32,270 bases of DNA from a virus (taxonomy: Duplodnaviria > Caudoviricetes): the IMG/VR virus record IMGVR_UViG_3300044724_001206, positions 1 through 32,270 of that record. One strand, given 5' to 3'. The translations under genes and the position numbers were made by a program. The notes under the pieces were generated by a model that saw only the letters and a program-made list of their open reading frames with translations, was not told where the DNA came from and ran no database searches. Positions 939 through 19,893 of the stretch are shown here, in pieces (position 1 is the first letter of the stretch; each line of letters starts with the position of its first letter).

Positions 939-958
939 TAGAAAAAGCGAGGTAAAAA

Positions 959-1510: not shown

Positions 1511-1511
1511 T

Positions 1512-3108: not shown

Positions 3109-3120
3109 AAGGGGTAGATT

Positions 3121-4047
3121 ATGTGCTTAATTATAGCAACCGAAAATCCAAAACAACTATCATCAGCTTTATTGGAAACAGCTTATGAAAATAATTCTGA
3201 TGGTTTTGGTGTGATGTTTATCAATAAGGGTAAACTTCATACACACAAAATTGTACCAAAAACATTTGCAGACATTGAAAAGATGTGGTCTAAATATCAA
3301 GACCTTGAAACCCCAATGGGTATTCACTTTCGATTTGCAACCAATGGCGATACAAACAAATCAATGTCACATCCATTCCAAGTGCTATCCAAAGCTAAAG
3401 GGGATGACAGAGATATGTGGGTAATGCACAATGGCCCTCAGTTGCCAACACCTATGATTGATGATAACAAATCTGACACACATCAGTTTGTCAAGTGGGT
3501 GTTGCGACCACAACTATCAGCCAATCCAAAACTATTGCACAATGCCGAGTGGCAATCCATGATCGAAGAACTGATTGGCACAGACAAACTTTTATTTCTT
3601 GATGGCAAGACTAAGGAGTTTGTTATCTTCAACGAAGATCAAGGTAAACACATGGATAATATTGGGTGGCTATCCAATACATATTCCATACAACCTTCGT
3701 ACAGTTCCACGACACGCACCAAATATTGGAATGACAAAACTAATGAGATCGAGGATCGATCTAACAAGTGGACTTATGATGATGAGTATTGGTCTTATGG
3801 TCACTACTCTGGTAGGAATTATTACAACACTACTAAGACACCTATAAGTGTGCAAGAGCCAAAAACTAATACGCAACTTGCACTACCTTTATCGGAAGAT
3901 GAAACCGATGAAACCATGTGGAATGGCAAAACTCTCTTGTGGGAAGATGTTGTTACCTTAGATAAAGATGAAATCATATCGTTATGTGAAGAAAATCCTG
4001 TTGGTATGGGTGTTCTGATCAGCGAAGAATTTGTGGGGAATAGATAA
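3121..4047 (+). CDS. Class II (Ntn) glutamine amidotransferase
   Basis: N-terminal catalytic Cys (MC), N.DGFG, HFRFATNG, HPF, HNG and SDT motifs. Confidence 0.9.
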   Translation: MCLIIATENPKQLSSALLETAYENNSDGFGVMFINKGKLHTHKIVPKTFADIEKMWSKYQDLETPMGIHFRFATNGDTNKSMSHPFQVLSKAKGDDRDMWVMHNGPQLPTPMIDDNKSDTHQFVKWVLRPQLSANPKLLHNAEWQSMIEELIGTDKLLFLDGKTKEFVIFNEDQGKHMDNIGWLSNTYSIQPSYSSTTRTKYWNDKTNEIEDRSNKWTYDDEYWSYGHYSGRNYYNTTKTPISVQEPKTNTQLALPLSEDETDETMWNGKTLLWEDVVTLDKDEIISLCEENPVGMGVLISEEFVGNR

Positions 4048-4739
4048 TGACGAACTACTTTAAACCAACTGTTGATACTGACTACAACCAAACAATAGTC
4101 TTTGGTGTGTCAACCTCTAATCGTAAAAAAGATTTCGGTCTTGTCAAAGCATTAGGTTATAGATTTGACCGAGATACAAAACTTGAAATCGTATGGGCAA
4201 ATGTCCAAAAGATTAATGGGTTTCCACCTTTTATCCGATTGAAGAATGTACAATTTGGATATGTGCCTAGCGGCAAATCCAGTACTGATATTGTATGGGT
4301 AAATGACAAACGTTATATTCCTGTACGTGAAACACAGTACATTTGTTATCGAGGTGTGCGTATCCGAAAAGCAGAGTACGATACGTTACATAGACCAGAC
4401 CAAAAGGAATGGACAACTGTCGAAAGACAAATAAGACGTGACGAAACGTTGCAATTATCTTTATCTTCATTAGTGAAGAAGTGGAAAGATACTGGAATCT
4501 GGGAGCAGATTGGAACAAAGACCAAGACAAGTGAATATTTGTCAGCTCTTACCCCACACGAATTTCTATCACATAAAAGCTCTGGGCCGACAGCACGAAT
4601 TGCACAATCGATTGCAGATTTAAGGGGGCATTTCGTAATACCAATGAAAGCCTTAGCAGTGCAACTGGCCAATACTTATGGCGGACTTTCAATACAACAG
4701 TTGTTCTACGAAAACCAACCACGTTACGTTGCCGAGTAA
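4047..4739 (+). CDS. Hypothetical basic protein directly upstream of the origin-like repeats
   Basis: 230 aa ORF coupled to the GATase (TAATG overlap); no motif recognised. Confidence 0.75.
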   Translation: MTNYFKPTVDTDYNQTIVFGVSTSNRKKDFGLVKALGYRFDRDTKLEIVWANVQKINGFPPFIRLKNVQFGYVPSGKSSTDIVWVNDKRYIPVRETQYICYRGVRIRKAEYDTLHRPDQKEWTTVERQIRRDETLQLSLSSLVKKWKDTGIWEQIGTKTKTSEYLSALTPHEFLSHKSSGPTARIAQSIADLRGHFVIPMKALAVQLANTYGGLSIQQLFYENQPRYVAE

Positions 4740-4921
4740 CACCGAAAGAACACCGAAAGAATACCGAGCGTACCTGTTTTCCTGTTAGGGGGGCAGGTAT
4801 GTATTATTATATAATAAAAATAATAATAAATTTTAAATCGTTAATAGGGGTTTCGCATACCCCACTCACCCCAAAAGTGGGTACGTTCGGTGTCATATCG
4901 GTGTCATATCGGTATTATTCG
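4733..4921. other. Putative replication origin: inverted iteron arms flanking an AT-rich core
   Basis: 42 bp arms 4733-4774 and 4880-4921 are imperfect inverted repeats. ACCGA at 4741/4752/4763 and TCGGT at 4887/4898/4909 (11 bp period). 37 bp pure A/T at 4802-4838. Confidence 0.6.
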
Positions 4922-4922: not shown

Positions 4923-4950
4923 TTGACAAATAAGGAGATTATGATATGAT
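4923..4950 (+). promoter_or_regulatory. sigma70-type promoter abutting the right iteron arm
   Basis: TTGACA -N16- TATGAT with TGn extension. Confidence 0.55.
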
Positions 4951-5119: not shown

Positions 5120-5626
5120 ATGATTATCGGAAAGTATATACCTGACAACGCATTGCAAGTGCGATACATACATCCATACTACGATACAGATGAAGATGGT
5201 TATCGTTACATAGTTAATGAAGATGAGGCGACCGATGTGTGGCAGCTTATCATGGATGTAAACAGAACAAGCAAACCTTTGTACTACAGGCGACGCGTAT
5301 CTGAATACGCAAGAGATGATGTGCGACGTTGGAACAGATCAATCAATGACGCCAACCGAAACACAACTGACTTTCAAGACTGGTATTATGTGCGTGTCAA
5401 AAAGGTAGGCCGACGTGTGTTGATTGTTCATGATCTAGCATACTGGATGAAAGTATATGAAAGATACAAGAACACAGTGCCGCGAAACCTAAATGTATTA
5501 AACGAGCCAAGACTAACAGCGGCTAATCGCAACCACAGGGTGTCCGCGTATATTGATGGGGCTTGGCAAGCTCTAGAAGAATCATGGGAAATGGAAAGGA
5601 GAAGGGCAGAAAATGACGAACGTTAA
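5120..5626 (+). CDS. Hypothetical protein (R/Y/W-rich)
   Basis: 168 aa ORF in an operon-like array. Confidence 0.75.
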   Translation: MIIGKYIPDNALQVRYIHPYYDTDEDGYRYIVNEDEATDVWQLIMDVNRTSKPLYYRRRVSEYARDDVRRWNRSINDANRNTTDFQDWYYVRVKKVGRRVLIVHDLAYWMKVYERYKNTVPRNLNVLNEPRLTAANRNHRVSAYIDGAWQALEESWEMERRRAENDER

Positions 5627-5894
5627 TATAAATAAAAAAGACTTAAACATTTTAGAGATAGAATGGATTGACGCAGTGTCGGATGATAACTCGTGGCAAG
5701 ACGTAACTGAATTGCAAAAACAAAAGCTAAGACCTGTCACAAGTGTCGGATATTTATTGAAAGAAGATAGCAAATCTACCATTATTGTGTCATCTTTTGA
5801 TGAAGAAAGTCAATGTGGTGGTGGAGGTGTGGTTATTCCTACCAACTGTATAATAAAAAAGACAATACTAAAAGGACAAATTGATGTTGAATGA
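5613..5894 (+). CDS. Conserved small beta-rich phage protein of unknown function
   Basis: IEW.DA...W...SVGYLL.E......SS.D.....IP..CI.K pattern common in phage hypotheticals. Confidence 0.8.
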   Translation: MTNVNINKKDLNILEIEWIDAVSDDNSWQDVTELQKQKLRPVTSVGYLLKEDSKSTIIVSSFDEESQCGGGGVVIPTNCIIKKTILKGQIDVE

Positions 5895-6300
5895 TTATGA
5901 TTGGAGAACTAATCTATTTGTCTATGGTACATTAAAGAAAGGGGGCAGACTTCACAGTGTGCTTGGCAACTCGGCAGAGTTTGTAGGACAATATGTCACA
6001 GCAGATTCTAAGTATGATTTGTTTAGTTACGCCAAGAGTTTTCCTATCATGGTGGCCAGAGAGAATGGATATAAAATAAGAGGAGAAGTGTGGTCGGTCA
6101 CACCAGAAAGTATGGACAGGGTAAATGCAATCGAGAGTGGCTCGCATTACTATCCATTCCAGATAGATGTGATGAATGAACACACAAAAGAATATGAAAT
6201 CGGTTCGGCTATGACATTTTTATTCCCGGGCAACAAGCACAAACTTATGCCTGTGTCGGATATAAATGAAGTCGAAGGAGTAAAGGAGTGGGTATGTTGA
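5884..6300 (+). CDS. Gamma-glutamylcyclotransferase (AIG2/GGCT-like)
   Basis: LFVYGTLKKG signature, I.GEVW.V, AIE...Y; ATG at 5884. Confidence 0.9.
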   Translation: MLNDYDWRTNLFVYGTLKKGGRLHSVLGNSAEFVGQYVTADSKYDLFSYAKSFPIMVARENGYKIRGEVWSVTPESMDRVNAIESGSHYYPFQIDVMNEHTKEYEIGSAMTFLFPGNKHKLMPVSDINEVEGVKEWVC

Positions 6301-8176: not shown

Positions 8177-8393
8177 GTTAGAAATACCAACAGAACTTTT
8201 AGAAAAAGATCCGTTAGAGTTGGCCGAGAATCAACAAGACATAGATACAATCATTGCGTATTTAAAAGCAACTCGTGAGAATATTAGAGCCGCGGAAAAA
8301 TCTGGTAAAAGAATTACAGGTAAGACAGCGAGAACAAAAACAAAACCCGTTACTGAGGGGAGCATACTCGATGTGTTAGTTAAAGATGTCTAA
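8160..8393 (+). CDS. Hypothetical protein
   Basis: 77 aa; SD GGAG. Confidence 0.75.
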   Translation: MTKTNELEIPTELLEKDPLELAENQQDIDTIIAYLKATRENIRAAEKSGKRITGKTARTKTKPVTEGSILDVLVKDV

Positions 8394-9339
8394 GCCAGAT
8401 AAAGTACCTAAGTATATTTATGTAAACGATAAACCAAAACAAGTGGTGTGGGATACGTCAAGCCTTTCAACTTTCTTGGCGTGTCCTCGTTTATATAATC
8501 TAACAAACCTACGCGGGTATAAGTTAAAGAGTTATGGTACGGTCACGGGCTTTGGTTCCGCAGTGCATGACGCATACGAGATACTGGATAGGGGCAGGTT
8601 TCATGGTAAAGATAAACAAGAGACAATGCGTGAAGCTATTACATATACTTTAAAAACATACGGCCCAGATCTTGCACAAGCAGAAGATAAAGCGAGAGGA
8701 TTAGAAGCTACCCTTCGTGCAATCGTGTGGCGCGTAGAAGAATACTGGGATGATAACATTAAGATTGCGGCCATGCCAGATGGCGAGCCGTGTCTTGAGA
8801 AAAGATTTGAAGTACCTTTTGGTGAGACAGGTAAAAGATTTTCTGGCAGGATAGATAAGATTGTAGAGTTTGAAGGTGGCTTGTATTTATGTGATACCAA
8901 AACAACAAAGGCATCTTTATCTGAAATGTATTTCAGAATGTACCAACCAAACAATCAAGTGTATGCGTACCTATGGGCGGCGCGTCACATATTAGATTTA
9001 CCAGTGCGTGGATTTATTATTGATGCAGTACAAACAGGTGTGCATTTTTGCAGATTCAATCGTGCAGTATTTAATGTATCTAACTTATCTATTGATGAGT
9101 GGTACCATGACACAGCATATAATTTAAATGTGTCCGACACATACCATGAACATGAATACTACCCAGCTAACTTTACATCGTGTGGAAATTATGGTGGATG
9201 TAAGTTTAGAGAGATGTGTTCTGAATCACCCGATCATCGCATGACTATACTGAATGAAGACTTTGAAGTCTCGTTACATAATGACCTCGTTCGTGAAGGC
9301 GAGATCATTGACGCAAAAGAATTGTTTGGTAAAAAATAA
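8386..9339 (+). CDS. PD-(D/E)XK exonuclease, Cas4/AddB-like, with probable Fe-S cysteines
   Basis: SSL..F..CPR, GSAVH, E.RF, GRIDKI, DTKT, Q...Y motifs; C-terminal C.....C.....C. Confidence 0.88.
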   Translation: MSKPDKVPKYIYVNDKPKQVVWDTSSLSTFLACPRLYNLTNLRGYKLKSYGTVTGFGSAVHDAYEILDRGRFHGKDKQETMREAITYTLKTYGPDLAQAEDKARGLEATLRAIVWRVEEYWDDNIKIAAMPDGEPCLEKRFEVPFGETGKRFSGRIDKIVEFEGGLYLCDTKTTKASLSEMYFRMYQPNNQVYAYLWAARHILDLPVRGFIIDAVQTGVHFCRFNRAVFNVSNLSIDEWYHDTAYNLNVSDTYHEHEYYPANFTSCGNYGGCKFREMCSESPDHRMTILNEDFEVSLHNDLVREGEIIDAKELFGKK

Positions 9340-9342
9340 GTG

Positions 9343-9370
9343 TTGACAAAAATTTTAATTATGATAATAT
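9343..9370 (+). promoter_or_regulatory. sigma70-type promoter for replication genes
   Basis: TTGACA -N16- TAATAT with TGn extension, in the intergenic gap. Confidence 0.6.
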
Positions 9371-9391
9371 TACAAAATACAGGAGATAAAT

Positions 9392-10204
9392 ATGGCAAGT
9401 ATAAAGAATCATACATCAGTAGATGTAACCAAGCTACTACTCGTAGGAGATAGTGGCTCTGGGAAAACGGCTTCATTAGCCACCCTTGCAAATGCAGGAT
9501 ACAAGTTACGTATCTTAGATTACGACAACGGCTTAGACATTTTACCCGAGTTCCTAACGGACACAGGTGTCAACAACGTTTCTTATGTAACGTTGAAAGA
9601 TCCTATGGGTAAAGCGGAGGCATTTCGTAAGGGGGCAGCTTTGATTTCCAACTGGAAAGATGGCGACGAAGAGTTCGGCCCTGTATCTAAATGGACTAAC
9701 AAAGATGTGTTAGTTATTGATAGCTTAACGTTAATGGGTGAGGCGGCACTTCGTGCGGCTCTTGTTTTTAACAATAAGAAATCTACAGATCAAGCCTCGC
9801 AACCCGAATGGGGAACGGCGGCTCGTGATGTGCAACATATCATACAGTACATTACAGGATCGGAAACGCCTTGTAACGTTGTTGTTACAACGCACATGCA
9901 ATACATGGAAGGAGACTTGGGAGTGTCCAAAGCATACCCAACTAGCGTAGGTTCTAAACTATCTACAAAGCTAGGAAGATACTTCAACTGTGTATGCAGA
10001 ATTGATACACGTTCTTCTAGCAAAGGAACCGAGCGTACATTACGTACTGTATCTGATCATAGAATGGATCTCAAAGTTACTGCACCAAGTCTTATTGGTC
10101 AACAAACTGAGTTGGATCTAGCTAAACTGTTCAGTGCAATACAACAAAATGCACGCAAAAAATTGTCGGCTGACAATGTAGTAAACCTAAAAGGAGGTAA
10201 TTAA
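9392..10204 (+). CDS. P-loop ATPase, AAA_24/Sak4-like recombinase
   Basis: Walker A GDSGSGKT, Walker B VLVIDSLT, VVVTTH; sits between an exonuclease and an SSB-like gene. Confidence 0.82.
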   Translation: MASIKNHTSVDVTKLLLVGDSGSGKTASLATLANAGYKLRILDYDNGLDILPEFLTDTGVNNVSYVTLKDPMGKAEAFRKGAALISNWKDGDEEFGPVSKWTNKDVLVIDSLTLMGEAALRAALVFNNKKSTDQASQPEWGTAARDVQHIIQYITGSETPCNVVVTTHMQYMEGDLGVSKAYPTSVGSKLSTKLGRYFNCVCRIDTRSSSKGTERTLRTVSDHRMDLKVTAPSLIGQQTELDLAKLFSAIQQNARKKLSADNVVNLKGGN

Positions 10205-10644
10205 TGGCTGATATTCAAGACTTTTTATCGATGAACCCGGATGACGTACAGGAATCCATAGTGCTACCAGAAGGTAGCTATGACTTTGTGATCACCTCGT
10301 ATCGTTCGGATAAAGTTGGTGAAAACCAAAACGAAATCGTAAGACTCAACGTCAAGGCAAATGCTGTCTTGGAATCTGAGATTACGGACGGTGACTTAGA
10401 TCACTGTGAACCTACCAGACTAGAGTTCTGGGCGACATCCCGTGCAATGGGGCAAGGGAATCCTGTCATCTCAATCAAGAAGTTCTTAACCAACACCTTG
10501 AGTTTGAGTGGCGCTAGCTTTGGCGAAATGCTAGAGCAAAGCATCGGTCAAACTTTCTCTGGTGTGGTAAAGCACGAGATGGTAGGCAGGAATAAAGACA
10601 TCCTGCAAGCGTCTGTTAAACGAATAATTAACAAGGCGGCATAG
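10204..10644 (+). CDS. DUF669-like putative ssDNA-binding protein
   Basis: LPEG.Y...I N-terminal motif, beta-rich; typical position after Sak4. Confidence 0.65.
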   Translation: MADIQDFLSMNPDDVQESIVLPEGSYDFVITSYRSDKVGENQNEIVRLNVKANAVLESEITDGDLDHCEPTRLEFWATSRAMGQGNPVISIKKFLTNTLSLSGASFGEMLEQSIGQTFSGVVKHEMVGRNKDILQASVKRIINKAA

Positions 10645-10648
10645 ACAG

Positions 10649-11725
10649 ATGGGTGAGTATGCAGTAAATAAAAACGTAGCATCGCAACTTACTGAGGGGG
10701 CAAGGATTGCGATAGTCATGGACTACCCGACCGTGACTGAAGTACGATTGAACAAGATGCTTGCCGGGGATTATATTCTTGGCAAAGTTTGTAAACTAGC
10801 AGGGATAAAGCTAGAAGATTGCATGCTCACCCACGTCTTTCAAAGACGACCGGCACAGGAAAACTTACAAAACTTTTTTCACAAGAGGAGTGAATACAAG
10901 GCTTTGTGCAAAGGTACAGAGTGGCGAACACCCTATCCGTCCTCGACGCTAGGGTTTCTCAAACAGGAGGCGCAACCACATCTGGAGAGGCTGTACAAGG
11001 AGATCAATGATATTAAACCTAATGTTATATTAGCACTGGGGGCAGTATCATTGTGGGCATTCACAGGGTATGATAAGATTGGAACTTATAGAGGGGCGCT
11101 CATCTCCTCTAACACCTCGCACATCAATGATGATATAAAAATAGTTCCCTCTTATGCCCTGTCGAGTGTCGCTAGAAATTACGCATTGAGATCTATCATG
11201 TATTCAGATTTCAAAAAAGCATTACAAGAATCAGAAACAACAGACATAGTAAATATAGAAAGAGAACTCTGGATCGAACCGAGTATAAACGACTTAGATA
11301 AATTTAAAGAAGACTTCATAAAGAAGGATAACGCAAAACAACCTTTGTCATTTGACATTGAAACAGCAGGCGGGCGAATAACTTGTATTGGGTTTGCCCC
11401 CTCTCCGACTCATGCCATTGTAGTTCCATTCACATACGGATACTGGAAGAATGATGATGAAACTAAAGCGTGGGACTGGGTTCGAGATTTACTAGAAGAT
11501 AAACAGATTGTAAAGGTGGCACAAAATCAATCATATGATGTGTCATGGTTAAAGTATAAACAAAACATAGATGTAAAGGGTATTGTACATGATACGATGC
11601 ATGCTCAACATTCTTTACAACCAGAAATGGAAAAAGGTTTAGGCTTCTTAGGCTCCATATACACTAACGAGGGTGCATGGAAAACTCTAGCCAAGTTTTC
11701 TGATAGCACGAAAGCCGATGAATAG
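10649..11725 (+). CDS. DNA polymerase A N-terminal subunit: degenerate uracil-DNA glycosylase-like domain fused to 3'-5' exonuclease (ExoI and ExoII only)
   Basis: UDG family 4-like EI..IKPNVILALGAVS; exonuclease motifs LSFDIET (I), AQNQSYD (II), HDTM; no ExoIII motif before the stop. Confidence 0.85.
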   Translation: MGEYAVNKNVASQLTEGARIAIVMDYPTVTEVRLNKMLAGDYILGKVCKLAGIKLEDCMLTHVFQRRPAQENLQNFFHKRSEYKALCKGTEWRTPYPSSTLGFLKQEAQPHLERLYKEINDIKPNVILALGAVSLWAFTGYDKIGTYRGALISSNTSHINDDIKIVPSYALSSVARNYALRSIMYSDFKKALQESETTDIVNIERELWIEPSINDLDKFKEDFIKKDNAKQPLSFDIETAGGRITCIGFAPSPTHAIVVPFTYGYWKNDDETKAWDWVRDLLEDKQIVKVAQNQSYDVSWLKYKQNIDVKGIVHDTMHAQHSLQPEMEKGLGFLGSIYTNEGAWKTLAKFSDSTKADE

Positions 11726-12078
11726 TGAAGCGACCAAATTACTTTTCTGCCAAAGACGTTGATGAACGTTGGGCGGATCAAGTCAACACCGTCCGACTCT
11801 GGCGTGCCGTTATTGATCAAGTCTTACAAGATTTAATTTACGAAGGCAAAGGAAAAGACGACAAGCGATCACATTTAACTGCATGGGAGTGGTTAAATGA
11901 TACAACAAAAGGTAATGACTTTGCGTTTGTCTGTGAGTTAGCAGACTTAGATGAAGCAAGAACACGTAAAGAAATTTACAAACTAATGGAGAAATTTTAT
12001 GGTAATAAATATAGAAGAAAACTTAAGACAAGCCTTGAAAATCTTAAAAGGGCCAAGAGAAAAAGAGTACGGAAATAA
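11725..12078 (+). CDS. Conserved phage hypothetical protein
   Basis: LWRAVI.Q..QD...A.EW...DF..VCELA.LD pattern; GTG overlaps the previous TAG. Confidence 0.75.
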   Translation: MKRPNYFSAKDVDERWADQVNTVRLWRAVIDQVLQDLIYEGKGKDDKRSHLTAWEWLNDTTKGNDFAFVCELADLDEARTRKEIYKLMEKFYGNKYRRKLKTSLENLKRAKRKRVRK

Positions 12079-12277
12079 AAAAGATAATCATGAAAACATC
12101 GCAGGTTTATGGTCAGCATATTTAGATACTAAAGTTTCAGCACACGATGTTTCCATCTTAATGTTACTGTTAAAGGTAGCAAGATTAAAGTCTGGTCAAC
12201 CTTCCAAAGATACATACGTAGACATGGTAGGGTATTCAGCAATAGCGGGGGAACTGAGTGATAAAAGTAAGCAATAA
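11999..12277 (+). CDS. DUF6378-like protein (all-alpha, possibly nucleotide pyrophosphatase-related)
   Basis: R..EYG....N..NIA.LWS.YL....HDV...M.LLKVAR......D..VD..GY signature. Confidence 0.8.
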   Translation: MVINIEENLRQALKILKGPREKEYGNKKDNHENIAGLWSAYLDTKVSAHDVSILMLLLKVARLKSGQPSKDTYVDMVGYSAIAGELSDKSKQ

Positions 12278-13787
12278 TAATTTAGATTTAAAACCATACA
12301 ACGACGAGCAGATCAACTGGATATACTGTGCATTAGATTGTACGTTGACACAAGAGATTTGGTCTAAGATATCAGAAGAACTTGATGAGACAACAAAAGG
12401 TACGTATGAGTTTGAACTAAAAAGTCTCAAGCCTGCAATGGCTATGACGTTACGAGGTTTGAAAGTAGATGAAGATAAAGTCAAGGCAATAAAAAAACCT
12501 CTTAAAGAAAAGAGATTACGTCTTGAAAGAATGTTGCATTTGTTTTCACAAGCGGTATCTGGTAAAGATTTAAATCACAACAGCCCAGTGCAGTTGAAGA
12601 AACTTTTATATGAAGATTTAAATTTACCACCAGTTGTTTCTTATGCTAAAGGTAAACAAAAGATATCAACCAACAGAGATGCTTTAGAATCTTTATCTGA
12701 TTCTTATCCAAGAGCCAGACCTTTTTGCAGAACAATACTTGCACTACGTGACATTGATAAAAACTTAGGAGTGCTTGCGTCAAAGCGTGACCCTGATGGT
12801 AGAATAAGATGTTCTTATAATGTAGCAGGTACAGAGACAGGCAGGTGGTCATCAAGAGAATCACCATGGCGTACTGGTACAAACTTACAGAACATAACAA
12901 AAGATTTACGTGAAGTCTTTATACCAGATACAGGTAAGCAAATGTTTTATGCAGACTTAGAACAAGCGGAGTCGCGTGCCGTTGCATACTTGGCTGCGGA
13001 TGAAAATTATATCAGCGTGTGTGAAAGTACTGACTTGCATACTGAAGTTGTTAAAATGGTATGGCCTAACATGGGTTGGACAAACGATCCAAAACAAGAT
13101 AGAGCTATAGCAGATCGTAATTATTATCTACATCACAGTTACCGTGACATATGTAAACGAGCAGGACATGGAACAAACTATGGTGTGTCACCACACTCAC
13201 TAGCAAGACAGATAAAGATCAAAGTGTCACAGGCTACACGATTTCAGTTGCTTTATTTTGGTGGTGTGATATCATCAGTTAGTTTAGAAAGATGGCACAA
13301 ACAAGATCCAATGGGGGGCTATCAAGAATTGTTAGATATAGGAGAAAAGATTGGTAAAGATACGCTTAAGATTAGGGGGGCATTCCCGGGCATACGTGTG
13401 TGGCATAACACAATACAAAAAGAACTAATTGAGAAGGGTAGCTTGACAACACCTATGGGTAGGCGTAGACATTTTTGGGATAGACTAAAAGATGCGTCGA
13501 CCTTGCGTGCGGCGATTGCATTTGTACCGCAGTCAACAATAGGTGACTTGCTAAACTTAGGTTTGTGTCGAGTGTATGATGAACTACAAGAAGCAGGTGT
13601 AGAAATATTAGGTCAAGTACACGATGCAATACTGGGGCAATGTGATAAGGACAAAGTAAATGATCTTATGCCACAGGTTCTCGAGAGAATGCACAATCCA
13701 TTGATGGTCAATGGACGCAAAATGTTAATACCTTCTTCCGTAGAGGTGGGAGATAATTGGAAGGATTTAAAAACATGGACGATATAA
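12258..13787 (+). CDS. polA: Family A DNA polymerase catalytic subunit (ExoIII helix, thumb, palm, fingers)
   Basis: YCALD (ExoIII), NSP.QL..LLY, TETGRWSS, NLQNI, motif A ADLEQAE, motif B RDICKRAGHGTNYG, motif C QVHDA. Confidence 0.95.
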   Translation: MIKVSNNNLDLKPYNDEQINWIYCALDCTLTQEIWSKISEELDETTKGTYEFELKSLKPAMAMTLRGLKVDEDKVKAIKKPLKEKRLRLERMLHLFSQAVSGKDLNHNSPVQLKKLLYEDLNLPPVVSYAKGKQKISTNRDALESLSDSYPRARPFCRTILALRDIDKNLGVLASKRDPDGRIRCSYNVAGTETGRWSSRESPWRTGTNLQNITKDLREVFIPDTGKQMFYADLEQAESRAVAYLAADENYISVCESTDLHTEVVKMVWPNMGWTNDPKQDRAIADRNYYLHHSYRDICKRAGHGTNYGVSPHSLARQIKIKVSQATRFQLLYFGGVISSVSLERWHKQDPMGGYQELLDIGEKIGKDTLKIRGAFPGIRVWHNTIQKELIEKGSLTTPMGRRRHFWDRLKDASTLRAAIAFVPQSTIGDLLNLGLCRVYDELQEAGVEILGQVHDAILGQCDKDKVNDLMPQVLERMHNPLMVNGRKMLIPSSVEVGDNWKDLKTWTI

Positions 13788-13987
13788 ATAAATTATATGT
13801 AGAGAATGGAAAGATAATAGTAGAGGAACCTAATAAAGGCACAACCAAATGCGATGGAGCAGAGATTGAAGGGCCCTCCGTTTTAAAGCAAGACGATGAT
13901 GGAAACATATGGATAGAAACAAAAGCTAAAGTGGTAAAAATTGTGAAGATTCTGCCAGAAAACATTTCAATACCGAATGAAAAATAA
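13775..13987 (+). CDS. Small beta-rich hypothetical protein
   Basis: ATG 13775 in frame with track ORF; EIEGPS.L...WIET pattern. Confidence 0.7.
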   Translation: MDDINKLYVENGKIIVEEPNKGTTKCDGAEIEGPSVLKQDDDGNIWIETKAKVVKIVKILPENISIPNEK

Positions 13988-15246
13988 TGGCAAGAAAATT
14001 CAAAGACTTTGTTCAAGCGTCTGTTGACGCCATAAAAGATAGTCCAATACCAAAACCATTCGCTAAGTGGACAGCACTGTCTGCTATAGCCGGTGCTATG
14101 GGCAGACGTGTATGGTTTCCAATGGCAAACTATAACATTGGTTCTAATCTTTTTGTTATATTGATTGCACCACCGGGCAGAAATAAATCAGTAAGTTTGA
14201 TATTACCTTTCTCAAAAGTATTCAGCAGACTTACTACTCCTGTTGGTTCCACACCAGAAGATCATAATTTTAATTCTGGATTAGCGGAATATAATTTAAA
14301 AGATTATCCTTTGTATAGTATTCAAGATAGAATCACACCAGAAAAACTGGCAGTTGATATGACTAAAGTTACACGTATGGATATGCGGTTGGGTGATATT
14401 GAAAATGAGTTTCAATTTTATGATTCATCATTGACTCTTGTGACGTCAGAGTTCGGTACATTCATGGGTCGTAATGAAAGGTACTTACAAATGTTTCTTA
14501 CAGATATGTGGGATGCTAAAGATTCATACAGTCACAAAACAAAAACAGCAGGGGAGTATCTTATTCAAGGCCCTTGTTTAAACTGGATAGCTTGTGCTAC
14601 ACCGACACAGTTTGTTGACAACTTACCAGAAGACGCAAAGTCTCAAGGTTTGTTATCAAGAATTATACCTGTGTTTTATGAAGGCGAAAGAATACCACAA
14701 GACTTGCGACAAAAAGTTATTAGTGAACACACAATAAATGATTTACGAAATGATTTAAGTCTTATCGCAAAGATGCATGGGCCGATGCAGTTTGATAAAG
14801 AAGCTTTTGAAATTGCAAACCAAGAGATCTATGACAACATACAACCGGAACCAACTGATCCACACCTGTCCGAGTATGGGCAACGACGTGTATCACACTT
14901 CTTAAAGGTTGCTATGTCGGTATCAGCGGCGCGTAGTTCTTCACGTTTCATCACGAAGGGTGATTGGGAAACAACAAAAGAGATTATGTTTGATATGGAA
15001 AAAGACATGCCAAGAGCATTGGAAGGTTTTGGTATGGCAAAGACAGGGCGTATTGCTCACGACATGAAGGTGTGGCTAGATGCCACACTTGCTGCGAGTG
15101 GCAAGAACCATATGCAGTTGCGATTCTTTAAGAGAGAACTGTTAAGAAAGATACAAAATCCCGGCGAACTGGATCAAACCATCAAGGCGATGCAGGATTC
15201 TGGGTACATAAAGCTAGAAGGTAATTTAATTTTTCCAAAAAAGTAA
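13987..15246 (+). CDS. DUF3987/YfjI-like P-loop ATPase with C-terminal winged helix; candidate replicative helicase
   Basis: Variant Walker A APPGRNKS, ITPEKL, Walker B-like VTSEFG, GLLSR; directly downstream of polA. Confidence 0.7.
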   Translation: MARKFKDFVQASVDAIKDSPIPKPFAKWTALSAIAGAMGRRVWFPMANYNIGSNLFVILIAPPGRNKSVSLILPFSKVFSRLTTPVGSTPEDHNFNSGLAEYNLKDYPLYSIQDRITPEKLAVDMTKVTRMDMRLGDIENEFQFYDSSLTLVTSEFGTFMGRNERYLQMFLTDMWDAKDSYSHKTKTAGEYLIQGPCLNWIACATPTQFVDNLPEDAKSQGLLSRIIPVFYEGERIPQDLRQKVISEHTINDLRNDLSLIAKMHGPMQFDKEAFEIANQEIYDNIQPEPTDPHLSEYGQRRVSHFLKVAMSVSAARSSSRFITKGDWETTKEIMFDMEKDMPRALEGFGMAKTGRIAHDMKVWLDATLAASGKNHMQLRFFKRELLRKIQNPGELDQTIKAMQDSGYIKLEGNLIFPKK

Positions 15247-15275: not shown

Positions 15276-15310
15276 ACAAAACTTTGTGTGTAAAATAATT
15301 GAGAGGAAAT

Positions 15311-17059
15311 ATGAAAGTAGAAATTGATTTAAATAAAGATGGCTTGTTGCCTAAAAATGCTGTGGATATCTTGCGTGACAGGTATATGTTACCAGAAGAA
15401 ATAAGTCCACAAGAATCCTTTGCCAGAGCATGTATGGCTTTTGCAGATAACAAGGCGCATGCCGAGAGATTATATAAGTATGTATCTAATCTGTGGTTTA
15501 TGTTTGCTTCTCCTCTCTTATCTAATGGTGGTACAGACAGAGGTCTTCCCATCTCTTGCTTCTTGAATTATGTACCCGACAGCCGTACTGGATTGTCTGA
15601 ACACTATACAGAAAACATATGGTTGTCTAGTATGGGGGGCGGAATAGGGGGTTATTGGGGCCATATTCGCTCACAGGGACAGTCTACAAGCAAAGGTAAT
15701 AAAACTACAGGGGTAATTCCTTTTATGCACGTAGTGGACTCTCAAATGGTAGCATTTAACCAAGGCTCTACCAGACGTGGATCGTATGCCAGCTATATGG
15801 ATATATCTCACCCCGAAATTATAGAGTTTATGGAGATGAGAAAGCCAAGTGGCGGCGATGTCAACAGAAAGAATCTAAACCTGCATCATGGTGTGGTAAT
15901 ACCAGACAAGTTTATGAAGGCAGTTGAAGGTAATCTAGATTGGGATCTTGTAGATCCAAACAGCAAGGAAATAGTAAAGACAGTAAAAGCTAGAACCCTG
16001 TGGATAAAGTTGTTGGAAACTAGAGTTTCAACTGGTGAGCCGTATATCATGTTTGGAGATACAGTCAACAAACATTTACCCAAAGAATTAAAAGCTAAAG
16101 GTTTAAAGGTACATCAATCTAATTTATGTAGCGAGATTACCTTACCAACTGATGAAGATAGAACAGCCGTGTGTTGTTTATCGAGTTTAAATTTAGAATA
16201 CTTCGATGAGTGGTCAAAGGATGAAATGTTTTTAGAAGATATTGTTAGAATGTTAGACAATACTTTAACATCATTCATCAAATCTGCCCCCTCTACGATG
16301 TGGCGTGCTATTAAAAGCGCAGAGTCTGAAAGGTCTATTGGTTTAGGGACAATGGGTTTCCATTCGTACTTACAAAAGAGTGGCATTGCATTGCAAAGTC
16401 CAATGTCTATGGGGCCAAACCTAAAAATATTTAAACATATTAAAAAGAAATGTGATGAAGCTAATATGTTATTAGGAAAAGAAAGAGGCGAAGCGCCAGA
16501 CATGAAAGGCACCGGAAAAAGATTTTCTCACATGACTGCAATCGCACCGAATGCAAGTAGTTCGGTTATATGTGGGAACACCTCGCCAAGCATCGAGCCA
16601 CTACGTGCCAATGCATTCTCGCAGAAAACACTTAGTGGTTCTTTCTTGTTAAAGAATAAATATCTCGAGGCATTATTAGAAAAGAAAGGGCAGAACACGA
16701 AGGATGTATGGTCTAGTATCATCACATCGGGGGGCAGTGTACAGCACCTAGAATTTCTAACACCGCAGGAAAAGAATATATACAAGACAGCTATTGAAGT
16801 TGACCAAGCATGGTTAATAGATCTAGCGGCGGAACGTCAAAAATATATTGATCAAGCTCAGTCTTTAAATTTATTCTTCCCACCAGATGCGGATGTGAAA
16901 AGATTAAATAGCGTTCACAAAAGAGCGTGGTCAAAAGGATTAAAGACTTTGTATTATTTACGAAGCCAAGCTATCAAACGTGCGGAAAATGTTTCACTTA
17001 AAGTAGAACGACAAGTCCGTGAAGATAGTGAAGATGAATGTGTAATGTGTCAAGCGTAA
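15311..17059 (+). CDS. nrdA: Class I ribonucleotide reductase alpha subunit, lacking the N-terminal ATP cone
   Basis: PISCF, SNLCSEI, VCCLSSLNL, APNASS, KTLYY, C-terminal CVMC; ATG 15311 after GAGAGG. Confidence 0.97.
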   Translation: MKVEIDLNKDGLLPKNAVDILRDRYMLPEEISPQESFARACMAFADNKAHAERLYKYVSNLWFMFASPLLSNGGTDRGLPISCFLNYVPDSRTGLSEHYTENIWLSSMGGGIGGYWGHIRSQGQSTSKGNKTTGVIPFMHVVDSQMVAFNQGSTRRGSYASYMDISHPEIIEFMEMRKPSGGDVNRKNLNLHHGVVIPDKFMKAVEGNLDWDLVDPNSKEIVKTVKARTLWIKLLETRVSTGEPYIMFGDTVNKHLPKELKAKGLKVHQSNLCSEITLPTDEDRTAVCCLSSLNLEYFDEWSKDEMFLEDIVRMLDNTLTSFIKSAPSTMWRAIKSAESERSIGLGTMGFHSYLQKSGIALQSPMSMGPNLKIFKHIKKKCDEANMLLGKERGEAPDMKGTGKRFSHMTAIAPNASSSVICGNTSPSIEPLRANAFSQKTLSGSFLLKNKYLEALLEKKGQNTKDVWSSIITSGGSVQHLEFLTPQEKNIYKTAIEVDQAWLIDLAAERQKYIDQAQSLNLFFPPDADVKRLNSVHKRAWSKGLKTLYYLRSQAIKRAENVSLKVERQVREDSEDECVMCQA

Positions 17060-17068
17060 GGAGGATTG

Positions 17069-18028
17069 ATGTCAGTATTTGAAGAAAGAAGTTATTATAA
17101 ACCATTCCAATATCCATGGGCTTTTGAGTCCTATGATATGCAACAGAAGATGCACTGGCTACCAAGTGAAGTGCCCCTTCATGAAGATGTAAATGATTGG
17201 AACAACCGTATGAGTGTAGCAGAAAAGAATTTAGTAAAACAAATACTAACTTTTTTTACACAGGGTGATGTTGATATTGCACAAGCATATATGGATGTCT
17301 ATATTCCTATGTTCAAACAACCAGAAATTAGAATGATGCTATCTGCTATCGCTACAAGTGAAGCAAACCATGCACACTCTTATTCTTTGTTGAATGATAC
17401 AATAGGTATGGATGATAAAGAATATAAAGCGTTTCAAGAATATGCAGCCATGAACGACAAGCATAATTATCTCTGGCAAAATAAAGGGGGCACAAGAGAT
17501 GAGAAACTTGTACGGGACATGGCTGTCTTCTCAGCATTTGGCGAAGGACTGCAGTTGTTTGCAAGCTTCGTCATGTTGCTGAACTTCCAACGTCATGGAA
17601 AGATGAAAGGCATGGGGCAAATCGTAGCGTGGTCTATACGTGACGAGTCTCATCATGTAGAAAGTATGATGAAGTTATTTCATTGTCTATTGGATGAGAA
17701 GCCTCATGTCTGGAACGACACGTTTAAGAAAAGTTTATATGATATATGCCGAGACATGGTAACGTTAGAGGATAGGTTTATTGATCTGGCTTTTGAACTA
17801 GGGCCAGTAGAAGGACTAGAACCTCATGAAGTTAAACAGTATATAAGGTATATAGCAGATAGAAGATTACTGCAGTTAGGATTAAAGCCTAACTTTGGAG
17901 TAAAAGAAAACCCTCTCGAGTGGGTCGACTGGGTAATAAATGGTGTAGAGCACACGAACTTTTTTGAAAATAGATCTACGGAGTACACAAAGGGTGCATT
18001 ACAAGGATCTTGGGACGATGCTTTTTAA
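17069..18028 (+). CDS. nrdB: Class Ia ribonucleotide reductase beta subunit
   Basis: HWLP.E, FFTQGD, EANHAHSY (radical Tyr present), EG..LF, DESHH, NFFE..STEY; SD AAGGAGG. Confidence 0.97.
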   Translation: MSVFEERSYYKPFQYPWAFESYDMQQKMHWLPSEVPLHEDVNDWNNRMSVAEKNLVKQILTFFTQGDVDIAQAYMDVYIPMFKQPEIRMMLSAIATSEANHAHSYSLLNDTIGMDDKEYKAFQEYAAMNDKHNYLWQNKGGTRDEKLVRDMAVFSAFGEGLQLFASFVMLLNFQRHGKMKGMGQIVAWSIRDESHHVESMMKLFHCLLDEKPHVWNDTFKKSLYDICRDMVTLEDRFIDLAFELGPVEGLEPHEVKQYIRYIADRRLLQLGLKPNFGVKENPLEWVDWVINGVEHTNFFENRSTEYTKGALQGSWDDAF

Positions 18029-18450: not shown

Positions 18451-18655
18451 GTACGATGGTTACGCTAAGAAATTGTTTTATGATTGGCGTAACAAAAGAA
18501 AAATAAGACTGCCCATTTGGGAGAAACTAAATTACAAAGACCGAGATGAGTGGCGCGGTGTGGCTCAACTCATGAAACGTGAAAGAAAAGAAATGAAAAA
18601 ACTTTTCAAAAATACAGGAGATAAACATGAAAGACAAACTACTCGAAGCCGTTAA
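18425..18655 (+). CDS. Small basic hypothetical protein (start uncertain)
   Basis: In frame with track ORF 18407-18655; WEKL..KDRDEWR pattern. Confidence 0.65.
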   Translation: MMYQEKETKYDGYAKKLFYDWRNKRKIRLPIWEKLNYKDRDEWRGVAQLMKRERKEMKKLFKNTGDKHERQTTRSR

Positions 18656-19859
18656 TGCAGTTGTCTTAGCTAAGGGTAATAAATCAGATGCGGCTCGTAA
18701 ATTAAATATACCAAGGCCAACATTGATGACCCGTTTAGCGGCGGCGGAGCGTGAGAACATAGCACCTTCTGTTAAATCGCCAGACTTAGAAGTAGCTTTA
18801 GCGGAACAAAAGATGACGTATGAATTGCAGGTACGGGATTTAAAGAAACAACTAGAAGAGTCTACGTTACATAACATTACTGCAAGTTATGTTCGTAAAC
18901 ATATATTTAAATTAGGTGAGCACGAACCTAACCCACCGGAGTGGTTAATAAAAGCAAAGCCATCTAAGAGTACGCCGGGCGTACCTACATTATTCTTATC
19001 AGACTTTCACTACGGAGAAGTTGTAAAGAAAGATGCGGTTAATAATTTAAATAGCTTCAATAAAAAAATATCACAGAAGAGATTAAAAGAAACAGTAGAA
19101 AATGCTATTGATCTATGTCATAATCATATGGTCAATCCAAACTATCCGGGCATTGTCTTAGCGTTAGGTGGTGACATGATGTCTGGAAACATTCATGATG
19201 AATTAACCGAGACAAATGATGGCACAACTATCGATCATGTACTGGAATTGTTTGATCAAATGATATGGACAATTACTACATTGGCTGATAAGTTTGGTAA
19301 AGTATTTGTTCCAACAAGTTATGGTAATCACTCTCGTGCTTATCAACAATACAGGAACAAAGAAGCGGCGCATTTAAGTTTTGATTGGATGCTGTATAAT
19401 TTATTAGAGAAACATTTTAAATCTATTAAAGATACAAGAATTAAATTTCAGATACCAACTGGATTCGATGCATACTATAAAGTATACGACACTACATACC
19501 TACTAACACATGGAGATAGACTCGGTGTACGAGGAGGTACTGGTATTGTCGGAATGCTTGGGCCTATTGCAAGAGGAGTTCAGAAGGTTAGATCAGAATA
19601 TACTAGCGTTGGTAAGTCCATTGACTATGTTATCATGGGGCACTTCCACCAGTATATTTCTATCAAAGGAGCCATTGTAAATGGTTCCCTCAAAGGCTAT
19701 GACGAGTACGCTATGAGTAATCGTTTCGCTTTTGAAACACCTAAACAGGCTTTATGGTTTACACACCCCCAACATGGTGTGACTTTCCAAGTTCCTATCA
19801 TTGCAGAAGATGCACCGATTAAGAAACGAAAGAAAGAATGGCTTCAATGGGCGTCATAA
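18627..19859 (+). CDS. Calcineurin-like metallophosphoesterase with N-terminal Fis-like HTH and coiled coil
   Basis: GNKSDAARKLNIPRPTL HTH; SDFHYG, GGDMMSG, GNH, THGD, GHFHQ metal-binding motifs. Confidence 0.88.
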   Translation: MKDKLLEAVNAVVLAKGNKSDAARKLNIPRPTLMTRLAAAERENIAPSVKSPDLEVALAEQKMTYELQVRDLKKQLEESTLHNITASYVRKHIFKLGEHEPNPPEWLIKAKPSKSTPGVPTLFLSDFHYGEVVKKDAVNNLNSFNKKISQKRLKETVENAIDLCHNHMVNPNYPGIVLALGGDMMSGNIHDELTETNDGTTIDHVLELFDQMIWTITTLADKFGKVFVPTSYGNHSRAYQQYRNKEAAHLSFDWMLYNLLEKHFKSIKDTRIKFQIPTGFDAYYKVYDTTYLLTHGDRLGVRGGTGIVGMLGPIARGVQKVRSEYTSVGKSIDYVIMGHFHQYISIKGAIVNGSLKGYDEYAMSNRFAFETPKQALWFTHPQHGVTFQVPIIAEDAPIKKRKKEWLQWAS

Positions 19860-19868: not shown

Positions 19869-19893
19869 AAAGGGGGTTGCAACTGCCCCCTTT
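19869..19893 (+). terminator. Intrinsic terminator-like hairpin (possibly bidirectional)
   Basis: AAAGGGGG-TTGCAACTG-CCCCCTTT, just after the stop at 19859. Confidence 0.65.

Follow-up and report, generated by a model that had tools for sequence, protein, structure and literature searches.

Polymerase-encoding viruses always carry their own replicative helicase, and among dsDNA viruses with a polymerase gene 98% also have one for a primase (Kazlauskas et al., 2016), a prior by which host priming would be an unusual route. The same survey named phage 119X, with its pair of a PolA polymerase and a DUF3987 protein, as a notable case without a primase. DUF3987 is itself a described family: PMC4889955 places it among the SF6 helicases, with a wHTH at the C-terminus and a predicted replicative role, and PMC11724360 reports by experiment that a PriCT-DUF3987 protein, AgaPH of a pAgo-associated mobile element, is an ATP-dependent 5'-3' helicase. 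In the Pseudomonas phages 119X and PaP2 (Fredfastierviridae) and the Caulobacter phage Kuura, the gene directly after PolA encodes a DUF3987 protein that stands alone and has about 400-420 aa. These phages also share a PD-(D/E)XK exonuclease and an AAA_24/Sak4 protein, and Pfam finds a primase in none of them. Coliphage N4 has a UDG-PolA (gp39, cluster 17 of PMC10201439), an exonuclease (gp42), the dns protein (gp43), a Sak4-like protein (gp44) and an SSB (gp45); dns is described as DUF3987 plus an AEP domain in PMC4889955. UDG-PolA fusions and the splitting of exonuclease and polymerase between genes have also been published (PMC10201439).

The DNA analyzed here (the window) is a stretch of 32,270 nt, IMG/VR record IMGVR_UViG_3300044724_001206, from an abundant uncultured marine podovirus. 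A preliminary description had offered its replication module as the best candidate for an undescribed system. That claim does not stand, because the SF6 family, the 119X case, UDG-PolA fusions and exo/pol splits are all in the literature, and the stand-alone form of DUF3987 is the norm in its subfamily (the best 150 representatives are all 488 aa or shorter). What is new is the membership, an estuarine and marine lineage (133 IMG/VR matches) that unites already published traits. CheckV places the window at about 53% of its genome, so statements about the rest of the genome rest on two relatives that CheckV rates as complete, G006 (60,616 bp) and G007 (59,435 bp). Pfam matches were judged against curated cut-offs, and structures were predicted for two of the roughly 40 window proteins, the DUF3987 protein and an OB-fold protein.

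Results

Kuura has the identical primase-less gene set in the same order; its UDG gene is separate and precedes two small genes and the polymerase gene, and its Sak4-like gene is followed by a DUF669-like gene of 146 aa. The set in PaP2 is similar. Sequence identity is low, at 24-28% for the helicase, and at 36% for PolA against Kuura. PaP2 differs in having PolA as one 801-aa gene and an extra SF1 Dda-like helicase, and genome size sets the marine phages, at about 60 kb and with RNR genes, apart from the others at 43-44 kb. The N4 parts list also matches the present module (UDG-type PolA, exonuclease, DUF3987-type helicase, Sak4-like protein and SSB), and a further parallel is a convergent gene for a very large virion protein, which runs toward the module on the opposite strand in N4 and here alike. 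However, N4 PolA is a single gene and dns is a 715-aa protein with a C-terminal AEP primase domain, whereas the window protein has 419 aa and a winged-helix end, so that the present set resembles that of N4 minus the AEP domain. BLASTP between dns and the window DUF3987 protein was not significant. The giant protein of the window likewise had no significant similarity to the N4 vRNAP; it resembles large polyvalent-protein clusters.

The recombination genes lie at the left of the module, all on the plus strand. The first (8386..9339, 317 aa) encodes a PD-(D/E)XK, RecB/Cas4-like exonuclease (Pfam PF12705, 64 bits, cut-off 22; PHROG 1218 'exonuclease', E 8e-22), with a homolog in 41 of 80 IMG/VR loci; the length of the loci limits this count. 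It is followed by a Sak4-type AAA_24 ATPase, a predicted single-strand annealing protein (9392..10204, 270 aa; PF13479, 55.5 bits, cut-off 27; PHROG 124 'Sak4-like ssDNA annealing protein', E 2e-19). The next gene (10204..10644, 146 aa) had no sequence-level family match in searches that included Pfam, PHROGs and NCBIfam. Its AF2 model (mean pLDDT 75.2) is an OB fold whose top PDB match is PrgE of pCF10 (E 1e-4, TM 0.58/0.64), followed by RPA, SSB and PriB chains; there were 78 BFVD matches at E<=1e-3, many of them naming DUF669, and the Kuura protein in the same position matches PF05037 at E 2e-3, under the cut-off. The protein is therefore described here as DUF669-like and as a predicted SSB partner of Sak4.

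The polymerase is encoded in two pieces on the plus strand. The first gene (10649..11725, 358 aa) carries a UDG-like domain (Pfam UDG, 26.4 bits, cut-off 24.3; NCBIfam UDG_fam4, E 7e-8 with a score far under the family cut-off) and the ExoI and ExoII motifs of a PolA 3'-5' exonuclease (DNA_pol_A_exo1, 46.3 bits, cut-off 23.6), and residues 238-322 of its product align with Klenow chain positions 39-125. The second (12258..13787, 509 aa; DNA_pol_A, 152.6 bits, cut-off 34.3) begins its Klenow match at residue 23, chain position 174, with an ExoIII-like YxxxD at residues 23-27. The gene break thus falls between ExoII and ExoIII, and because this leaves the first product with ExoI and ExoII and the second with ExoIII, the two polypeptides are predicted to assemble into a single UDG-PolA enzyme. 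Alignment with Taq pairs 'kraghgtnyg' with 'ktinfgvlyg', which puts His in the Phe762 position. The split PolA with His762 of the preliminary description is therefore borne out, and its pseudo-UDG is supported in that residues of the family-4 UDG motifs appear, on reading the sequence, to be replaced.

S-SBP1-like T7-type phages have exonuclease and polymerase parts in separate genes, and UDG-PolAs have a family-4 UDG-like domain N-terminal to the exonuclease (PMC10201439). The present phage combines both features, and differs from the S-SBP1-like arrangement in that two small genes separate the halves and the break lies at ExoII/ExoIII. The available text of the virioplankton study describes only Phe and Tyr forms at position 762, and the word histidine does not occur in that text. 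One of the small genes (11725..12078, +) encodes a 117-aa protein, conserved over about 95 aa, that is found in 71 of 80 loci (alignment A2, 33 sequences) and had no match in Pfam, PHROG, NCBIfam or PDB-profile searches. The other (11999..12277, +) encodes a 92-aa DUF6378 protein (PF19905, 98.5 bits), a position held by a DUF3310 gene in G006 and G007. Immediately before the helicase gene, an ORF of 76 aa (13757..13987, +) occurs in 31 of 80 loci and has no family match and no Cys motifs.

The last gene of the module (13987..15246, +) encodes the 419-aa stand-alone DUF3987 protein (PF13148, 45.9 bits, cut-off 27), a predicted replicative helicase. The variant Walker motifs of the preliminary description are in this protein, APPGRNKS at residues 61-68 and VTSE at 152-155, and neither varies among 20 sequences of the lineage. 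Among 34 diverse homologs K67, R225 and E338 never change, and conservation is at least 90% at E155, R300 and R301; 'LLSRI' with R225 stands where the 'SRFD' arginine finger of MCM presumably sits. The structure model is weak (mean pLDDT 56.6, core below 50). Even so, Foldseek gave 23 PDB matches at E<=1e-3, and among the matches listed all were MCM or MCM-loading-complex chains; VIA-align of residues 1-343 gave MCM-family chains as the top 11 (Z 8.7-11.6), and the tail (349-419) matched the MCM8 WH domain (Z 8.5, rmsd 2.0, 65 residues aligned within 354-419). A sequence-level search against PDB chains found no match. The model therefore suggests an MCM-like AAA+ core (about 1-343) with a C-terminal winged helix (349-419), in agreement with the AAA+-like helicase and winged-helix-like tail of the preliminary description. 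This structural likeness to archaeal and eukaryotic MCM helicases does not extend to the N-terminal OB/zinc domain, which is missing because the protein begins about 60 residues before the P-loop. MCM translocates 3'-5'. In contrast, the sole assayed DUF3987 helicase, AgaPH, runs 5'-3'; as described in PMC11724360, it shares with the window protein the DUF3987 ATPase, Walker A/B motifs and a small C-terminal domain, but has an N-terminal PriCT and an adjacent AEP PrimPol partner, neither of which the window protein has.

To the left of the module, at 4733..4921, is an iteron element in which three AAYACCGA repeats, phased at 11 bp, are followed by an AT-rich spacer and then by three copies in inverted orientation. 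The 3+3 architecture is also present in the related loci L004 and L033 and in G007 and G006, with a different repeat word in G006, so the proposed iteron element is real and conserved; it is a candidate origin, though it could alternatively be an operator or promoter region. Just right of it (4923..4950, +) is a consensus match to a sigma-70-like promoter (TTGACA, 16-nt spacer, TATGAT; 11 of 12 positions). Although the G006 iterons differ, the recognition helix of the winged-helix domain hardly varies across lineage sequences, which argues against the helicase reading the iterons.

By sequence comparison, the interval 8386-15246 contains no gene of any catalogued primase family. Searches of the window ORFs against Pfam, PHROGs and NCBIfam gave no primase, DnaB, RNA polymerase or integrase family match, and the word 'primase' appeared only in PHROG names assigned to the DUF3987 protein. 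For the window and the relatives G006 and G007, six-frame Pfam searches were empty for Prim-Pol, DNA_primase_S, DNAG_N, Zn_ribbon_DnaG, DnaB_C and Phage_integrase (none of three at E<=1); RNA_pol was also zero of three at E<=1, but its control was equally silent, so that this zero carries no information. Toprim_2 was absent from all ten records of relatives, a set separate from the window, and Pfam scans of 81 of 82 ORFs in G006 and 73 of 74 in G007 found no primase. The absences listed in the preliminary description are thus upheld, in that none of the TOPRIM, AEP, DnaB, T7-type RNA polymerase and integrase families was detected in the window or in these scans of the two complete relatives. 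The window ORFs common to G006 and G007 that lack a clear assignment encode 117, 107, 77 and 117 aa, and for two early proteins, of 398 and 308 aa, there are weak amidoligase-like and amidotransferase-like matches only.

Discussion

Since no primase is recognizable, primers for this replication-recombination module are likely to come from the host and from recombination intermediates, a reading given about an even chance here. In this model replication would start at the iteron/AT-rich element (4733-4921), where host RNA polymerase, transcribing from the adjoining promoter-like site, would perhaps supply the initial primer. The DUF3987 protein would act as a hexameric replicative helicase and host DnaG would prime lagging strands. 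Later rounds may be recombination-dependent, with the exonuclease resecting ends, Sak4 and the SSB pairing 3' ends, and PolA extending the paired ends into concatemers.

An alternative is that the phage has its own primase, too divergent or novel for the tools used, either in an unassigned ORF or as an unrecognized activity of a known protein such as the UDG-like domain or an HTH-metallophosphoesterase at 18627-19859. The 98% prior favors this, Kazlauskas et al. allow that primases of 119X may have been missed, and according to PMC4889955 the AEP domain of N4 dns was recognized only through sensitive profile-profile comparison; structures cover just two window proteins, and the unfolded hypothetical ORFs include 4047-4739 (230 aa), 5120-5626 (168 aa) and 22243-23685 (480 aa). 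However, no unassigned ORF of at least 150 aa is common to the window, G006 and G007, the replication operon ORFs have no CxxC pairs of the zinc-ribbon type, the best conserved of the unknown proteins has an OB fold and not that of a primase, and the matches of the 410-aa protein are phage genes with metallophosphoesterase or exonuclease annotations. In G007 a subclade-specific insert of 221 aa separates the genes for polymerase and helicase; the window lacks it, and the HxD...H pattern of the insert looks oxygenase-like by eye. A divergent primase is therefore considered unlikely. The missing primase would also be explained if the DUF3987 protein were an origin-binding initiator or loader that recruits host DnaB-DnaG, with the phage giving only the polymerase, and the C-terminal winged helix and unusual P-loop (PPGRNKS) are compatible with this. 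It is an improbable reading, however: the entire subfamily typically shows P-loop variation and an 'xE' Walker B, conservation extends to the catalytic Lys, Glu and Arg residues, the helix of the winged domain stays constant while the iteron word varies, polymerase-encoding viruses always supply a helicase, and a DUF3987 protein has measured helicase activity.

Very improbable is a start without de novo primers, in which a phage protein nicks or opens GGGGGCA[G/C] and PolA and the helicase extend by strand displacement. The dispersed GGGGGCA sites of the preliminary description are strongly enriched (26 in the window against 1.25 expected, 20-fold or above), in all three reading frames, both senses and intergenic DNA. 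The word ranks first or second among enriched 7-mers in G006 and G007, its positions turn over among relatives while density is maintained, the eighth base differs by sublineage (G in the window, C in G006), and spacing is slightly more even than random (CV 0.64-0.79 against about 0.95), though by a weak test (P 0.015-0.15). However, the supposed link between motif and module fails: PaP2 has a similar module with GGGGCA at 0.5x and no GGGGGCA enrichment, and GGGGGCA is not among the most enriched words of Kuura. No nickase was identified, the phage with the closest full-length homolog of the HTH-nuclease has no enriched word, and the genome would be fragmented if so many sites were nicked on the two strands. 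A host-related (Chi-like) signal or a modification site fits the motif equally well. At least three of the intergenic copies belong to terminator-looking G5/C5 hairpins, with flanks read by eye and one of them also found by scan.

Gene content and the absence of a catalogued primase

The window is a single contig of 32,270 bp with an estimated completeness of about 53% (CheckV). The small-terminase gene, which runs off the left edge, and the genes for an ejection protein and a 2,200-aa virion protein in the right part are on the minus strand, and the early, replication, nucleotide-metabolism and lysis genes form a single block on the plus strand (959-24143). The GC skew changes sign at about 24 kb, the point where both gene blocks converge. 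Family scans of the window ORFs with Pfam, PHROGs and NCBIfam resolved the replication module, all on the plus strand, into a PD-(D/E)XK exonuclease (8386-9339), an AAA_24/Sak4-like ATPase (9392-10204), a 146-aa protein of no family (10204-10644), a UDG-like domain with a PolA 3'-5' exonuclease (10649-11725), a 117-aa protein of no family (11725-12078), a DUF6378 protein (11999-12277), a PolA polymerase domain (12258-13787), a 76-aa ORF (13757-13987) and a DUF3987 protein (13987-15246). Class I RNR genes follow on the same strand (15299-18028). No tRNA genes or Rfam families were found in the window.

The same three databases placed no primase, DnaB, RNA polymerase or integrase family on any window ORF, and a relaxed Pfam scan at E<=1 together with NCBIfam on the window unknowns (twelve in the relaxed scan) added nothing. 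The sole "primase" labels were PHROG names attached to the DUF3987 protein itself. CxxC or Cx4C pairs were absent from the operon ORFs except for the early 398-aa protein and the RNR tail. Because the window is only half a genome, complete relatives were sought. In IMG/VR, 133 stretches encode close relatives of the DUF3987 protein and 80 of these loci were kept (63-99% identity), including two contigs rated 100% complete, G006 (60,616 bp) and G007 (59,435 bp), whose gene order is that of the window. Pfam recovered from both the replication genes seen in the window together with capsid, terminase, SU10-type adaptor, chaperonin and RNR genes, and no primase, DnaB, RNA polymerase or integrase among 81 of the 82 ORFs of G006 and 73 of the 74 ORFs of G007 (each omitted ORF spanned two sequence pieces).

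Six-frame searches at E<=1 of the window and these two genomes gave matches in none of the three for Prim-Pol (PF09250), DNA_primase_S (PF01896), DNAG_N, Zn_ribbon_DnaG, DnaB_C (PF03796) and Phage_integrase, and the positive controls for all six worked. RNA_pol was also found in none of the three, but this says little because its controls were silent. Toprim_2 was found in none of ten relatives' records. At the level of sequence, the lineage thus appears to encode neither a DnaG/TOPRIM primase (zinc ribbon, DnaG N-terminal core, TOPRIM) nor a DnaB-type (SF4) helicase with the DnaB_C RecA-type domain. The preliminary description had seen no primase, DnaB or integrase in the module or the window, and profile scans with working controls bear this out for catalogued families; the canonical primase or helicase that it allowed for elsewhere in the genome was not found by Pfam in the two complete relatives. 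The lack of a primase is a stable feature of the module, not a product of incomplete assembly.

The DUF3987 protein as a predicted fork helicase

The 419-aa DUF3987 protein matches PF13148 at 45.9 bits against a curated cut-off of 27, with residues 147-325 aligned to profile positions 144-342 of 364. It had no meaningful match among PDB sequences. AlphaFold modelled it with low confidence (mean pLDDT 56.6); the ATPase core stays below 50 and the C-terminal third scores higher. Foldseek with this model returned 23 PDB matches at E<=1e-3, and all of those listed are MCM or MCM-loading-complex chains. The top 11 VIA-align matches, which cover residues 1-343 and so a core modelled at pLDDT below 50, are also MCM-family chains (Z 8.7-11.6). 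The two aligners concur despite the weakness of the model, which suggests that the core is an AAA+ domain structurally related to MCM. The winged-helix tail proposed from sequence also holds up, as residues 349-419 (block-mean pLDDT 59-87 from residue 351) match that of MCM8; VIA-align superposes residues 354-419 on the MCM8 winged-helix domain with Z 8.5 and rmsd 2.0, and many other winged-helix domains match too.

The strings APPGRNKS and VTSE, quoted earlier as variant Walker motifs, are present at residues 61-68 and 152-155 and are invariant in 20 lineage sequences. Among 34 diverse homologs (22-60% identity), the Walker A lysine (K67), R225 and E338 never vary, the Walker B glutamate (E155), R300 and R301 are at least 90% conserved, the position before E155 varies freely and the P-loop often departs from the textbook GxxxxGK[ST]. 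This pattern indicates that the "variant" motifs are normal for the subfamily and are no sign of a dead enzyme.

Kazlauskas et al. (2016) place DUF3987 proteins in SF6 as MCM-related proteins with a C-terminal wHTH, predict them to be replicative helicases and note that an AEP or DnaG primase frequently precedes them or shares their polypeptide (PMC4889955). With only about 60 residues ahead of its P-loop, the window protein cannot accommodate a primase domain at the N-terminus. HMMER, run in full against 1.84 billion representatives, gave 4,154 relatives at E<=1e-3, and the best 150 of these are all at most 488 aa long. A separate search for near relatives listed close relatives only, and a word-based search, which is weak evidence, found no longer or fused forms (735-2095 aa). 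The family phrog_14296 (E 5e-49) has the same primase-free architecture, since positions 1-339 of its 417 align to residues 5-367. A 2025 paper shows that AgaPH, a PriCT-DUF3987 protein, unwinds DNA 5'-3' with ATP and binds the adjacent PrimPol (PMC11724360); no other DUF3987 protein is known to have had such activity measured. The window protein may act as the fork helicase, presumably as a hexamer.

A split PolA with a UDG-like domain

The ORF at 10649-11725 matches UDG over residues 33-183, with 26.4 bits against a cut-off of 24.3. Its residues 220-339 match DNA_pol_A_exo1, which places a UDG-like domain directly N-terminal to the PolA 3'-5' exonuclease. UDG matches were also obtained for the homologs in G006, G007 and the Caulobacter phage Kuura. 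The NCBIfam family-4 UDG models gave 32.4 on this domain against a cut-off of 125.3. By eye, 'MDYPT' and 'VPSY' appear to stand at the positions of the family-4 UDG motifs GE[AG]PG and HPS. Czernecki et al. (2023) describe UDG-PolAs as an N4-like cluster in which the UDG catalytic residues are not conserved, plus others outside it (PMC10201439). The UDG-like domain may be a non-catalytic DNA-binding or processivity part, as that study proposes for the N4-like enzymes. A literature search combining uracil-DNA glycosylase-like, polymerase and phage returned nothing relevant.

ExoI ('DIET') and ExoII ('NQSYD') lie together in this ORF, and the Klenow match of the polymerase ORF begins at query residue 23, which corresponds to chain position 174, the ExoIII tyrosine by our count. 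The exonuclease domain is therefore itself interrupted by the gene break, which separates ExoII from ExoIII and leaves room for two small genes between the PolA halves (10649-13787). A histidine in the polymerase ORF aligns to Taq F667, the position of Phe762 in E. coli Pol I. The split PolA with His762 reported in the preliminary description is thus supported by the Taq and Klenow alignments, and the lineage unites three features: a UDG-PolA, separate exo and pol genes, and histidine as residue 762. The two polypeptides would be expected to assemble into one enzyme. Splitting of exo and pol genes in S-SBP1-like T7-type phages was presented as the first case for PolA (PMC10201439). The second gap gene encodes DUF6378 in the window and DUF3310 in G006 and G007.

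Possible sources of primers

The observations amount to a parts list and the absence of catalogued primases. From these parts, replication can be pictured with the DUF3987 protein unwinding the fork and a two-part PolA extending primers supplied by the host. The origin would be primed by a transcript of the host RNA polymerase and the lagging strand by host DnaG, and later replication would depend on recombination by the exonuclease, Sak4 and an SSB. This overall picture is given about an even chance of being correct. The recombination part draws on the ATPase gene, which matches AAA_24 (55.5 bits) and a Sak4 PHROG (124), and on the next gene, whose 146-aa product is modelled as an OB fold (mean pLDDT 75.2). 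The best solved match of that model is PrgE of pCF10 (E 1e-4, TM 0.58/0.64), followed by RPA, SSB and PriB chains, and its best viral matches are DUF669 proteins. The two genes thus appear to form a pair of an AAA_24 ATPase and an adjacent predicted ssDNA-binding protein of the DUF669/SSB type, and because the Sak4 gene adjoins, the 146-aa protein is most simply read as its cognate SSB.

The leading alternative, that the phage encodes a hidden primase, is considered unlikely, and other alternatives are ranked below it. In its favor, divergent AEPs such as that of N4 dns are reported to be recognised only by sensitive profile-profile comparison (PMC4889955). The window ORFs that have counterparts in both G006 and G007 and still lack an assignment are small (117, 107, 77 and 117 aa). 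Several larger proteins were weighed for this role. The 146-aa protein was set aside because of its OB fold. The 410-aa protein (18627-19859) has an N-terminal Fis-type HTH and a metallophosphoesterase (Mre11/SbcD-like) domain; its homologs are phage genes annotated as metallophosphoesterase or (repair) exonuclease, and a full-length homolog with 42% identity adjoins the lysis genes in the temperate podovirus MW202713, so it was set aside. Searches of PDB sequences gave no meaningful match for the 410-aa, 146-aa or 117-aa proteins. G007 has a 221-aa gene with an HxD...H pattern between the polymerase and helicase genes, which was set aside because it is confined to a single subclade. The giant virion protein (24140-30742, minus strand; 2,200 aa in the window, 2,413 aa in G006 and 2,860 aa in G007) was weighed as a hidden primase too; its gene converges on the replication block like the vRNAP gene in N4. 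It was set aside since neither N4 vRNAP nor any solved chain is significantly similar to it and it groups with large polyvalent-protein clusters, with a weak ART-PolyVal match in the G007 homolog.

A further alternative dispenses with a primase altogether and takes GGGGGCA[G/C] octamers, found every 1-2 kb, as the starts of synthesis, by nicking or by an unrecognised template-directed priming activity of the phage's own proteins. The motif itself is real and lineage-wide. GGGGGCA occurs 26 times in the window against 1.25 expected, for example at 4789, 5036, 9631, 13376 and 24193, and none of 100 shuffles reached 26. Among 7-mers ranked by enrichment it comes first or second in G006 (26 copies) and G007 (31 copies), and the GGGGCA core is 3.3-9.4-fold enriched in all 38 IMG/VR loci of at least 12 kb. 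The dispersed sites of the preliminary description are therefore confirmed, but their proposed tie to the module is not: the core stands at 0.5-fold in the Pseudomonas phage PaP2, Kuura has no comparable enriched word (nor does MW202713), and from one phage group to another the motif and the module part company. No finding ties the motif to priming, a literature search on the motif words found nothing relevant, and synthesis starting at the octamers is regarded as very improbable.

The sites fall in all three frames (15 sense, 6 antisense and 5 intergenic), with a strand bias no larger than composition predicts, as estimated from GC skew, and a spacing only mildly more even than random. There are no copies in the early region 585-4624. 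Some sites are kept in position between relatives and some turn over. The preferred eighth base differs between sublineages, being G in the window, which favors GGGGGCAG (15 copies), and C in G006, which favors GGGGGCAC (24 copies). Intergenic copies at 4768-4802, 19884-19905 and 30767-30785 supply the G-rich arm in terminator-like G5/C5 hairpins, and a few of the 26 copies may exist for this reason.

A candidate origin

The intergenic region 4733-4921 carries three copies of AAYACCGA with 11-bp phasing and three more in inverted orientation, the two sets separated by an AT-rich spacer, followed by a strong sigma-70-like match (11/12) at 4923-4950. The 3+3 layout is found at the equivalent place in the relative loci L004 and L033 and in G007 and G006, and a strict script for phased 3+3 iterons retrieved only the window, L004, L005 and G007 (4 sources). 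G006 keeps the layout with a different word, which fits a protein-binding element that has evolved together with its binder. The element is a candidate origin, though it could equally be an operator region. The DUF3987 protein is probably not the iteron reader, because its winged-helix helix hardly changes among sequences with different iterons. In the region separating the terminase gene from the early genes, tandem 8-bp repeats (428-535; four copies of AAAAGCTA and 3.8 of TGAAAAGC) could be a second regulatory or origin-like element.

Comparison with known phages

Kuura shares the gene order of the window: the PD-(D/E)XK exonuclease gene is followed by genes for an HTH protein, AAA_24, a DUF669-like protein of 146 aa and an unknown of 236 aa, and then by the UDG gene, two small genes, PolA and DUF3987; Pfam found no primase. 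In PaP2, which also lacks a primase, the exonuclease, AAA_24 and DUF3987 are accompanied by a PolA of 801 aa that is not split and by an additional SF1 helicase. The coliphage N4 has the same kinds of parts, but with an AEP domain C-terminal to the helicase on dns (PMC4889955). These comparisons make the module a recognisable and widespread type. The best phage-database matches of the window helicase are Pseudomonas phages 119X and PaP2 (24% identity), and BLASTP against N4 dns was not significant. The supplement of PMC4889955 places the 417-aa 119X protein among replicative helicases and, as read from the tab positions of one row, leaves its primase columns empty. The module had been put forward as a candidate undescribed system; instead, the window is an abundant marine example of a known primase-less PolA/DUF3987 type. 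Near-identical DNA of the lineage was found in 20 sequencing runs from 19 studies, in addition to the 133 IMG/VR matches. No literature on replication in Fredfastierviridae was found by title or abstract.

In the 2016 survey nearly all viruses with their own DNA polymerase carry a primase (98% of polymerase-encoding viruses), and the handful of exceptions was left unexplained (PMC4889955). The survey raised the question of how such phages prime DNA synthesis, and the lineage by itself reveals no new mechanism. One of the exceptions, the pairing of PolA with an MCM-like DUF3987 helicase that stands alone, turns out not to be peculiar to a few Pseudomonas phages. A module whose gene order persists both in a Caulobacter phage and in a common estuarine and marine lineage is good comparative material and gives depth on the primer question, and the iteron element and the enriched octamer are conserved cis-elements that could serve as experimental handles. 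Were the octamers to prove starts of synthesis, the lineage would offer a tractable model of the phages with a "missing primase", to which 119X first drew attention.

Outside the replication genes, the early genes at 1912-4047 and 5881-6300 look like a peptide-modification gene set, with a 398-aa protein (a weak amidoligase-like signal, and Amidoligase_2 matches in its relatives), a gamma-glutamyl cyclotransferase and a 308-aa protein in which class-II amidotransferase signals are weak. The two complete relatives exchange accessory genes: the RNR is of class I in G006, where C1q-like fibre genes are numerous, and of class II in G007, which also encodes several 2OG-Fe(II) oxygenases, one apparently located between polymerase and helicase. 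Both genomes carry Cpn10 and Hsp20 genes in the structural arm.
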